From NCBI GenBank assembly GCA_045637705.1, contig JAZTZY010000013.1, positions 11,154-75,153 on the forward strand: a stretch of 64,000 nt of DNA. The letters are read 5' to 3'. The position numbers and the translations under genes were made by a program. The stretch comes from Acutalibacteraceae bacterium. GTDB lineage: Bacteria > Bacillota > Clostridia > Oscillospirales > Acutalibacteraceae. A model generated the notes under the pieces. That model did not search any database and was not told the DNA's origin. It saw only the letters and a program-made list of their open reading frames with translations. Shown here piece by piece: positions 32,613 through 33,220 of the stretch (positions within the stretch are counted from its first letter, which is position 1; every line of letters starts with the position of its first letter).

Positions 32613-32655
32613 ATAAGGTAGAAAATCAGATTATGAAATAATTTTGAATAAACTA

Positions 32656-32684
32656 TTGACATTTATTTATCTCTAATATATAAT
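32656..32684 (+). promoter_or_regulatory. Promoter of small-peptide gene A
   Basis: TTGACA, 17-nt spacer, TATAAT. The upstream sequence tttgaataaactat is conserved with copy B. Confidence 0.55.
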
Positions 32685-32737
32685 GAGACTATGTTGAAGG
32701 GTAACCTTTGATAAATCTTGAAATGGAGGAAATTACA

Positions 32738-32827
32738 ATGGCAGACGCATTTGCAAAGTTCGAAGCTGTATGGCAGGCTATCTGGGCTTACATCTATGCA
32801 ATCCTTGAATACTTCGAAGTAAAATAA
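32738..32827 (+). CDS. Small amphipathic Trp-rich peptide A (29 aa)
   Basis: GGAGG RBS 8 nt upstream. MADAFAKFEAVWQAIWAYIYAILEYFEVK. Own promoter and terminator; paralogue of peptide B. Confidence 0.5.
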   Translation: MADAFAKFEAVWQAIWAYIYAILEYFEVK

Positions 32828-32841
32828 TCAACTGAGATTGA

Positions 32842-32859
32842 TTTAAACAATTGTTTAAA
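32842..32859. promoter_or_regulatory. Perfect 18-bp palindrome TTTAAACAATTGTTTAAA
   Basis: Read directly; lies between the peptide A stop and its terminator. Confidence 0.5.
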
Positions 32860-32861
32860 AA

Positions 32862-32895
32862 GAAAAAGCCACCTTTAAGGTGGCTTTTTCTTTTG
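32862..32895 (+). terminator. Rho-independent terminator
   Basis: aaaaagccacc-ttta-aggtggcttttt. Confidence 0.75.
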
Positions 32896-32956
32896 GCGTT
32901 TATTATCTGATTGTAAAAACTTTTCGATGAAATATTAAAAGAATTTGAATAAACTA

Positions 32957-32985
32957 TTGACATTTCAAAGACACTGTTATATAAT
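32957..32985 (+). promoter_or_regulatory. Promoter of small-peptide gene B
   Basis: TTGACA, 17-nt spacer, TATAAT. Leader conserved with copy A (gagacYatRttRaagggtRacctttgataaat). Confidence 0.55.
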
Positions 32986-33039
32986 GAGACCATATTAAAG
33001 GGTGACCTTTGATAAATATTAAATACGGAGGAAATATTC

Positions 33040-33141
33040 ATGCAGACTTTTAAAGATATGTGGCAGATGCTTTGGAACCTCATCTATGAGATTCTTGCTA
33101 TCTTCGGCATCGAAAAGGATGAAGAAGGCAACCTTGCATAA
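33040..33141 (+). CDS. Small amphipathic Trp-rich peptide B (33 aa)
   Basis: GGAGG RBS. MQTFKDMWQMLWNLIYEILAIFGIEKDEEGNLA. Confidence 0.5.
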   Translation: MQTFKDMWQMLWNLIYEILAIFGIEKDEEGNLA

Positions 33142-33161
33142 GTTCTAAACAATTATCGCGA

Positions 33162-33177
33162 TTAAACAATTGTTTAA
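33162..33177. promoter_or_regulatory. 16-bp palindrome TTAAACAATTGTTTAA, with an extra TAAACAATT half-site upstream
   Basis: Read directly; lies between the peptide B stop and its terminator. Confidence 0.5.
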
Positions 33178-33180
33178 TAG

Positions 33181-33220
33181 ACAAAACCTGTCCGATAAGG
33201 ACAGGTTTTGTTTTTGTTTA
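33181..33220 (+). terminator. Rho-independent terminator
   Basis: caaaacctgtcc-gataa-ggacaggttttg plus a T-run. Confidence 0.75.

Follow-up and report, generated by a model that had tools for sequence, protein, structure and literature searches.

The 64-kb window analysed here (64,000 nucleotides of contig JAZTZY010000013.1 from an Acutalibacteraceae bacterium, GenBank assembly GCA_045637705.1) contains two head-to-tail units of about 300 bp, unit A followed by unit B, each encoding a small peptide predicted to be amphipathic. The region 32300-33600 was read and its open reading frames (ORFs) were listed, and the same order of elements was found in each unit, namely a TTGACA-17-TATAAT promoter, a 5′ leader hairpin, a GGAGG sequence, the ORF, a 16-nt palindrome, and a strong terminator. 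The two units showed 79% identity over 91 nt (32632-32722 versus 32933-33023). An initial annotation of this DNA had described two tandem units of this size as monocistronic genes for paralogous small amphipathic peptides. The genes proved to be genuine, and every element described was located, including a perfect promoter (32656-32684 and 32957-32985), a GGAGG ribosome-binding site before each ORF (32725-32729 and 33027-33031, 8 nt from the ATG), and a palindrome with a strong terminator (predicted at 32858-32894 and 33179-33213) in both units. Directly upstream of unit A lies a gene for a secreted Cys-rich protein with its own promoter and terminator, which the initial annotation did not include and which is termed the partner gene below. 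The features (window coordinates, strand; lengths of products in amino acids, aa) are as follows.

32632-32684, +: unit A promoter, with a conserved AT-rich upstream block, −35 TTGACA at 32656-32661, a 17-nt spacer, and −10 TATAAT at 32679-32684
32692-32713, +: unit A 5′ leader hairpin, 9 bp in the single-sequence fold, with a GUAA loop; covariance-model match of 64 bits
32725-32729, +: unit A Shine-Dalgarno sequence GGAGG, 8 nt before the ATG, unpaired in the centroid fold
32738-32827, +: peptide A gene, 29 aa, type A, MADAFAKFEAVWQAIWAYIYAILEYFEVK
32843-32858, no strand: palindrome TTAAACAATTGTTTAA in the unit A 3′ untranslated region (UTR)
32858-32898, +: unit A intrinsic terminator, a 17-bp stem with A-tract and U-tract, potentially bidirectional
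32933-32985, +: unit B promoter, with the upstream block, −35 at 32957-32962, and −10 at 32980-32985
32993-33014, +: unit B 5′ leader hairpin, with a GUGA loop; covariance-model match of 62 bits
33027-33031, +: unit B Shine-Dalgarno sequence GGAGG, 8 nt before the ATG
33040-33141, +: peptide B gene, 33 aa, type B, MQTFKDMWQMLWNLIYEILAIFGIEKDEEGNLA, a predicted helix followed by an FG cap and an acidic tail, EKDEEGNL
33154-33177, no strand: unit B 3′ UTR, with a conserved TATCGCGA block and the palindrome TTAAACAATTGTTTAA (33162-33177)
33179-33218, +: unit B intrinsic terminator
32004-32032, +: partner gene promoter, TTGACT-17-TATAAT, 11 of 12 positions matching
32081-32566, +: partner gene, encoding a 161-aa secreted Cys-rich protein
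32579-32607, +: partner gene terminator

The peptides had been thought to be overlooked, which does not apply to every gene caller, as the exact sequences of both A and B are present, unnamed, in a public protein collection. A 101-aa ORF on the opposite strand (32778-33083, −) was judged to be an artefact of the AT-rich spacer. An inverton was also considered, given the identical palindromes flanking unit B, and was rejected because inversion of the whole promoter and ORF unit would bring about no change and because many related loci contain a single palindrome. At other loci, the next peptide gene starts less than 80 nt after its predecessor, without a promoter of its own, in eight cases, which makes the tandem monocistronic layout seen in the window one of two that occur.

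A peptide family in uncultured gut Clostridia

On four contigs carrying homologues of the partner gene (46-78% identical), two to three small ORFs of 27-36 aa were found right after the partner gene on the same strand. When species-representative genomes were scanned, another 51 partner-gene loci were obtained, all from metagenome-assembled genomes of uncultured Acutalibacteraceae, Oscillospiraceae or 'Clostridia', which came mostly from the ruminant gut and in some cases from the human gut. A hidden Markov model (HMM) built from the first peptides matched related small ORFs almost exclusively on the + strand, just 3′ of the partner gene. After refinement of the start sites by the ribosome-binding site, the peptides were assigned to type A (consensus MAEFFAKFEAVWQAIWxYIYKVLxYF...), type B (MxxFKDMWQMLWxLIYxILxIFGIEKDExGNL...) and type C (MxLWDWIYxTFGLDHLVELFNxIKxLFA), in addition to more divergent forms of 38-52 aa. 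At least one peptide was present in 40 of the 49 loci having at least 600 nt of downstream sequence, on the same strand as the partner gene, with ORF, ATG and GGAGG retained, and at a median distance of 198 nt past the partner stop codon; the A and B orthologues were often accompanied by a type C peptide. The window was searched for a type C peptide and contained none; the genome of the window has A and B only. Type C units of other loci (e.g. L001 5134-5223 and L007 4104-4190) have a conserved promoter (TGTTGACAAA...TATTAAAATATAG), a 5′ hairpin (CAAGGA...TCCTG) and a 3′ motif (TTTAAATT) that all differ from those of A and B.

Codon alignments were made of 23 distinct type A and 20 distinct type B orthologues. 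The third codon position was the most variable (0.52 in A and 0.50 in B, versus 0.27-0.35 at positions 1 and 2), and synonymous sites were near saturation, the proportion of synonymous differences (pS) being 0.72 in A and 0.63 in B and that of nonsynonymous differences (pN) 0.30-0.32. The pN/pS ratio was 0.42 for type A and 0.50 for type B, with a median ratio of nonsynonymous to synonymous substitution rates (dN/dS) of 0.27 and 0.33, respectively, whereas pN/pS in the shifted frames was 0.9-1.15 for A and 0.85-1.2 for B. These substitution patterns indicate that ORFs A and B are coding and under purifying selection in the annotated frame. The initial annotation had named a lack of homologues with a conserved reading frame as the outcome that would speak against translation; dozens of homologues keep the frame, with dN/dS of about 0.3.

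No significant match to the A and B peptides was obtained in Pfam, NCBIfam, PADLOC, PHROGs or the PDB, and the Rfam search gave nothing above threshold, the only sub-threshold matches at permissive E-values being terminator-like. With the peptide profile, a word-indexed search of 5.8 billion proteins retrieved 128 proteins, all of 32-60 aa and, where named, only as 'hypothetical'. An exhaustive HMM scan of 1.84 billion representatives gave 59 clusters at E ≤ 1e-3, all of them stand-alone peptides of 29-54 aa with no domain fusions, except for one spurious eukaryote-like repeat protein. The motif strings were absent from the full texts searched and from the supplements of the Sberro et al. preprint and the MetaRibo-Seq paper. 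These searches, together with the typing above, support the view that the A, B and C peptides form an undescribed family, as the initial annotation had proposed for A and B. A phage origin was considered and discarded, as neither a relative of the partner nor the B-type palindrome context was found in viral contigs.

The net charge of peptide A is −2 and that of peptide B is −4, with aromatic contents of 28% and 15%, and the predicted hydrophobic moments (0.56-0.64) fall within the range of phenol-soluble modulins (PSMs) and delta-toxin (0.53-0.72), in agreement with the earlier description of both as acidic and strongly amphipathic. Each of the 72 family peptides examined carries a net negative charge (−1 to −9), and their mean aromatic content is 18-28%. 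The maximal 19-residue Kyte-Doolittle hydropathy is about 1.1, versus 2.2-2.5 for Fst and TisB, so that, by this measure, the peptides fall short of the hydrophobicity needed to span a membrane. Neither A nor B matched a signal peptide or leader, as had been noted before, and the helix begins at residues 3-8. Each peptide is thus predicted from its sequence to be a single acidic, aromatic-rich amphipathic alpha-helix. The most strongly conserved positions make up an aromatic ladder with i/i+4 spacing (F-x3-W-x3-W-x3-Y), at F8-W12-W16-Y20 of peptide A and F4-W/Y8-W12-Y16 of peptide B; E9 in A and M7, L11 and Y16 in B are invariant. The conservation moment was 0.07, so conservation is not confined to one helical face; conservation around the whole helix suggests packing against other helices rather than simple binding to a surface. 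The proposed paralogy of A and B was borne out by BLASTP (E = 2e-6) and by hhalign of the two families (probability 97.5%, E = 5e-12). The A-type HMM scored B peptides at 23 bits (1.4 for reversed sequences) and, more weakly, type C peptides at 9.4 bits (1.5 for reversed sequences).

Conserved promoters, leaders and 3′ ends

Perfect TTGACA-17-TATAAT promoters occur at five sites in the window, versus 0.02 expected, and two of the five are those of units A and B, which thereby have consensus promoters of the sigma-A type. A 22-mer spanning the −35 region, TTTGAATAAACTATTGACATTT, is identical in both units (0 expected by chance), and all 50 orthologous promoters found (50/50) have the same upstream block, a TTGACA-like −35 and a 17-nt spacer. 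By its sequence, this promoter type looks like the strong housekeeping-type promoter of the lineage. Among orthologous units, mean pairwise nucleotide identity was 0.80-0.81 in promoters, 0.68-0.71 in leaders and 0.72-0.75 in 3′ UTRs, whereas the ORFs reached only 0.62. The better conservation of promoter, leader and 3′ UTR than of the ORFs indicates a nucleotide-level constraint on top of the coding constraint. The remaining three perfect promoters of the window lie at 2283-2311, 36610-36638 (−) and 37050-37078, the first of them preceding rpsL (ribosomal protein S12, 2322-2786), and the promoters of secG (51048) and tig (47632) have a TTTGAATAAACTATTGAC-like upstream motif in common with the units.

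The core of the leader, GAGACYATRTTRAAGGGTRACCTTTGATAAAT, differs at 4 of 32 positions between units A and B, so the conservation of the leader seen earlier between the units was confirmed. The small aagg/cctt hairpin assigned to it is present but larger than had been stated, with 7-9 bp and covariation across species. In orthologous leaders, the consensus hairpin has eight pairs, 96% of cells are paired, and compensatory changes were seen in seven of the eight pairs; 53 double-change cells were counted, versus 11 ± 6 in shuffled alignments, and sliding the 3′ partner by 1-3 columns as a control reduced pairing to 33-57%. G-U and U-G pairs are frequent across the orthologues, which indicates that it functions at the RNA level, in + strand transcripts. 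In the window, both hairpins have a 9-bp stem with a GNRA loop (GUAA in A, GUGA in B) and begin 8 nt past the −10 hexamer, about 1-3 nt from the predicted transcription start, and the Shine-Dalgarno sequence is unpaired in the centroid folds of both units. A covariance model of the leader had exactly two matches in the window (64 and 62 bits; next best 21 bits) and uncovered further peptide units in other loci. The sequences flanking the hairpin (CATATTA...GATAAAT) are likewise conserved. The simplest reading, inferred by analogy, would be that the hairpin is a 5′ mRNA-stabilising stem-loop like those of aprE and ermC in Bacillus, where 5′ stem-loops are well established as stabilisers of mRNA (work cited in PMC3997798). 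The translation-initiation region of peptide A (32725-32740, GGAGGAAATTACAATG) is nearly identical to that of the partner gene (32068-32083, GGAGGAAATTCCAATG).

The palindrome TTAAACAATTGTTTAA occurs twice in the window (32843-32858 and 33162-33177; 0.03 expected). Across 52 distinct units it is exact in 47, and the other five carry a symmetric variant, TAAAACAATTGTTTTA; it is placed 8-23 nt past the stop codon, directly before the terminator. When 343 kb of related loci were scanned allowing up to two mismatches, 62 of 62 matches were in the 3′ UTRs of peptide transcription units. As RNA, the palindrome could form a weak hairpin of 5-7 bp, and the terminator stems are also conserved in sequence. 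That the sequence of the palindrome itself is kept, beyond its pairing, speaks for a factor that recognises it specifically, which could be a dimeric DNA-binding protein or else an RNA-binding protein or RNase. Being self-complementary, the 16-mer could also bring about pairing of the A and B mRNAs with each other.

The Cys-rich partner gene and its neighbours

The partner protein has an N-terminal Sec-type signal peptide, a Cys-rich middle region with about 15 conserved Cys/His residues, and a C-terminal acidic, aromatic amphipathic helix, with its best-conserved stretch in the last 45 or so residues (FVxGFQAILKxISDVFDKIFDAIFEFLRLDEVLGRN). It has 72 homologues, all unannotated. AlphaFold2 predicted it with a predicted local distance difference test score of 64 (alignment of 32 sequences) or 59 (70 sequences), with confidence only in the N- and C-terminal helices (C-terminal 120-158). 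The C-terminal helix, which is acidic, carries a ladder (F141-F145-F149) comparable to that of the peptides. A PDB profile search with the Cys-rich family returned nothing. Flanking genes differ among the loci on the four contigs described above, yet the combination of partner and peptides persists, and, among the genes within ±3-4 kb of the peptides in 58 loci, only the partner gene was conserved as a neighbour. Gene order thus indicates that the peptide genes and the upstream Cys-rich gene form a conserved module. At one locus (L059, 2333-2551) a 72-aa protein made up of just a signal peptide and an aromatic helix (HRFIFEILIDMVLEWWGMIRYIFYDVFLGVPA) takes the place of the partner, with type A and type B peptides after it. 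From this reduced partner, it would seem to be the exported helix that is relevant to the peptides, and not the Cys-rich domain.

A second secreted protein, of 140 aa, is encoded at 1715-2137 (+) in the window. It has nearly the same signal peptide as the Cys-rich protein (hhalign E = 3e-10) and, in addition, a linker of acidic character, the invariant motif LGEYxWILDLP and an amphipathic helix rich in Lys; none of its 273 homologues is functionally annotated. Searches of Pfam, NCBIfam, PADLOC and PHROGs with the Cys-rich and 140-aa proteins gave nothing significant, and no homology was found between the peptides and the 140-aa family. The 140-aa gene is directly upstream of the Cys-rich gene in 12 of the 58 loci (in the order uvrC, XRE helix-turn-helix gene, 140-aa gene, Cys-rich gene, peptides); in the window, the block of uvrC, XRE gene and 140-aa gene is 30 kb away from the Cys-rich gene. 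The 140-aa protein may be a further, basic component of the peptide system.

Proposed PSM-like envelope peptides and competing explanations

We regard it as somewhat more likely than not (about 0.55) that A and B are strongly expressed, independent monocistronic genes for PSM-like envelope peptides that act with the exported partner. The 5′ hairpin would protect the mRNA from 5′-end-dependent decay and, in combination with the promoter and ribosome-binding site, would make the peptides very abundant. Exported by a non-Sec route encoded outside the locus, they would partition to the interface of membrane and envelope, pack helix-to-helix with one another and probably also against the exported partner's C-terminal helix, and, as PSMs do, structure the cell surface or hold the secreted protein there; the palindrome would be read by a sequence-specific factor co-regulating the units. 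Membrane activity, secretion and signalling by the peptides are what we purely infer. LspU of Staphylococcus aureus, a PSM-like peptide encoded beside a secreted lipase gene, traps the lipase at the cell surface (PMC12607899), and it provides a precedent for a leaderless amphipathic peptide that retains a neighbouring secreted protein at the surface. A wider form of this proposal, which is possible but doubtful, is a lineage-specific envelope system of uncultured gut and rumen Oscillospirales in which one or two Sec-exported proteins with amphipathic helices and two to three extremely abundant leaderless peptides would make up a heteromeric helical bundle or a cross-alpha-type coat, their mRNAs being co-regulated through the palindrome. 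If so, the palindrome would be a new post-transcriptional or terminator-proximal control element.

Several observations weigh against PSM-like peptides acting with the partner. The topology is awkward, since the partner helix is extracellular and the peptides lack a signal peptide, and no exporter is encoded near the peptides, no ATP-binding cassette (ABC) transporter being conserved within ±3-4 kb in the 58 loci; the staphylococcal pmt exporter genes are likewise unlinked to the psm genes. The charge is uniformly negative, unlike that of PSM-alpha and delta-toxin. Nine of the 49 loci, all with divergent partner homologues, carry no peptides. The 5′-terminal position of the leader hairpin rests on a predicted transcription start. 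Homology between the peptides and the partner helix was not significant (hhalign probability 1.4%, E = 0.036); the score was 3 bits, versus 0.2 for reversed and −1.8 for shuffled sequences. The notion that the peptides are stand-alone copies of that helix was for this reason dropped, and only a resemblance is retained.

The initial annotation had drawn an analogy to leaderless bacteriocins beside that to PSMs. On this explanation, the peptides would be multi-peptide leaderless bacteriocins of the garvicin KS, aureocin A70 and enterocin L50 type, secreted to kill competitors, with the Cys-rich protein as an accessory or immunity factor. Two or three tandem leaderless, helical, Trp-containing peptides of about 30 aa would fit this group, whose known members have 30-34 aa, but the analogy broke down on three points: the whole family is anionic (−1 to −9), where the leaderless bacteriocins listed have an isoelectric point of about 10-11 and a charge of +2 to +4, so that the remark already made on a negative charge atypical for bacteriocins and PSM-alpha was well founded; no immunity or ABC-transporter gene is conserved within the ±3-4 kb examined; and the distribution of the locus is vertical and syntenic instead of sporadic, orthologues of A, B and C being spread over many species. 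There was also no sequence match to any bacteriocin family, and we consider a bacteriocin quite unlikely. Toxins of a type I toxin-antitoxin system, Fst/TisB-like and silenced by an antisense RNA, are less probable still. The 29-33 aa size and the acidic C-terminal tail of B resemble Fst, and terminator A is potentially bidirectional, whereas the hydropathy given above is about half that of Fst and TisB, the Shine-Dalgarno sequence is not sequestered in the folds, promoter-like sites for an antisense transcript were predicted in only 4 of 40 loci and at differing positions, and a consensus constitutive promoter is ill-suited to a toxin. Purely non-coding small RNAs with fortuitous ORFs would account for the nucleotide-level conservation of the flanks, yet they are ruled out in effect by the frame-specific purifying selection, and the conserved GGAGG-N8-ATG arrangement, the retention of peptide motifs despite saturated synonymous sites, and HMM matches in the + frame only leave this explanation hardly tenable.

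Two further explanations are improbable to a lesser degree. The transcripts of about 200 nt might be dual-function RNAs, also regulatory or targets of RNA-binding proteins through their UTRs, which would be compatible with PSM-like peptides. This would agree with flanks of 0.68-0.81 identity around ORFs of 0.62, with a palindrome that is nearly invariant and exclusive to peptide 3′ UTRs, and with the sequence-conserved terminator stems. RNAIII/hld is a precedent for a dual-function RNA. Another is AzuCR (PMC8915982). On the other side, there is no Rfam match above threshold and no known target, and the palindrome is equally explicable as a DNA operator, so we give the dual-function explanation a small share of the probability. 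A similarly small share goes to cytoplasmic small proteins that serve as escorts or chaperones for the sticky C-terminal helix of the exported partner, or that regulate another cytoplasmic or membrane protein. The absence of a signal peptide, the tight linkage to genes of Sec-exported proteins with amphipathic helices, conservation around the whole helix (which suggests protein-protein packing), and an acidic charge complementary to the Lys-rich helix of the 140-aa protein argue for such a role, but a dedicated chaperone would hardly seem to call for so strong a promoter and two to three paralogues, Sec export offers no precedent, and adjacency of the 140-aa gene is limited to 12 of 58 loci.

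With PSM-like envelope peptides retained as the preferred explanation, the likeness to known systems is partial. PSMs and delta-toxin are leaderless single amphipathic helices of 20-45 aa with a hydrophobic moment similar to that predicted for A and B, PSM genes are tandem paralogues with very high expression (as the signals of A and B would predict for these), PSM-beta is anionic like A and B, and LspU resembles A and B in being encoded beside the gene of a secreted protein, on which it acts at the surface. There is, however, no sequence homology to PSMs or delta-lysin (no Pfam or NCBIfam match at E ≤ 1). The A/B family is uniformly acidic with far more Trp and Tyr, its hosts are strictly anaerobic gut Oscillospirales of a different phylogenetic group, no Agr-type control or Pmt-type exporter was identified, and it is coupled to a Cys-rich exported protein and marked by a palindrome in the 3′ UTR that hardly varies. 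Leaderless bacteriocins (garvicin KS, aureocin A70, enterocin L50 and the cereucins) share two to four tandem genes for helical leaderless peptides of about 30 aa, but are strongly cationic, have transporter or immunity genes alongside, and are sporadic in distribution. Dual-function small RNAs (RNAIII/hld, psm-mec, SR1/SR1P and AzuCR) are likewise short transcripts encoding a peptide of about 30 aa, with non-coding parts conserved beyond the needs of translation; A and B differ in having no known base-pairing target and a conserved 3′ element that may act as DNA. The aprE leader and ermC stabilisers also place a stable hairpin (predicted in A and B) near the 5′ end, before a strong and exposed Shine-Dalgarno sequence, whereas in A and B the flanks of the hairpin are conserved as well. 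The chaplins of Streptomyces comprise long, anchored exported proteins with a surface-active module that are co-encoded with several short stand-alone versions; all have signal peptides and form beta-rich amyloid. The long-plus-short arrangement is alike in A and B, but the sequences are unrelated, and A and B have no established homology to the helix of their long partner protein.

What is unusual in the family is its acidic, aromatic chemistry, the obligate linkage to a secreted Cys-rich protein, and highly conserved UTR elements including the palindrome. No part of bacterial genomes is less understood than the genes for proteins of fewer than 50 aa, and almost nothing is known of them in uncultured fibre-degrading gut Clostridia. 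Given the evolutionary evidence of translation, the fixed genomic partner and signals that predict very high abundance, the A/B family is a good candidate for a major, so far overlooked constituent of the envelope or the secreted fraction in Acutalibacteraceae. Most of what is known of PSM-type peptides comes from staphylococci, and an acidic, aromatic analogue in anaerobes would widen the concept. The palindrome and the covarying 5′ hairpin are, in addition, ready parts for studying or engineering high expression and mRNA stability in these bacteria.

Two minor observations concern the surroundings of the partner gene. A regulator of the MerR/TipAS family is encoded divergently from it in the window (31111-31860, −) and is probably unrelated, as this adjacency is absent from the other loci with listed neighbours. 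In four loci that have a divergent partner and no peptides (L019, L023, L027 and L033), a conserved palindromic element resembling (C)TTTAAAC-N-TTAAAGTTTAAA, e.g. CTTTAAACTTTAAAGCGTTAAAGTTTAAAGG, lies about 110-160 nt past the stop codon of the Cys-rich homologue.

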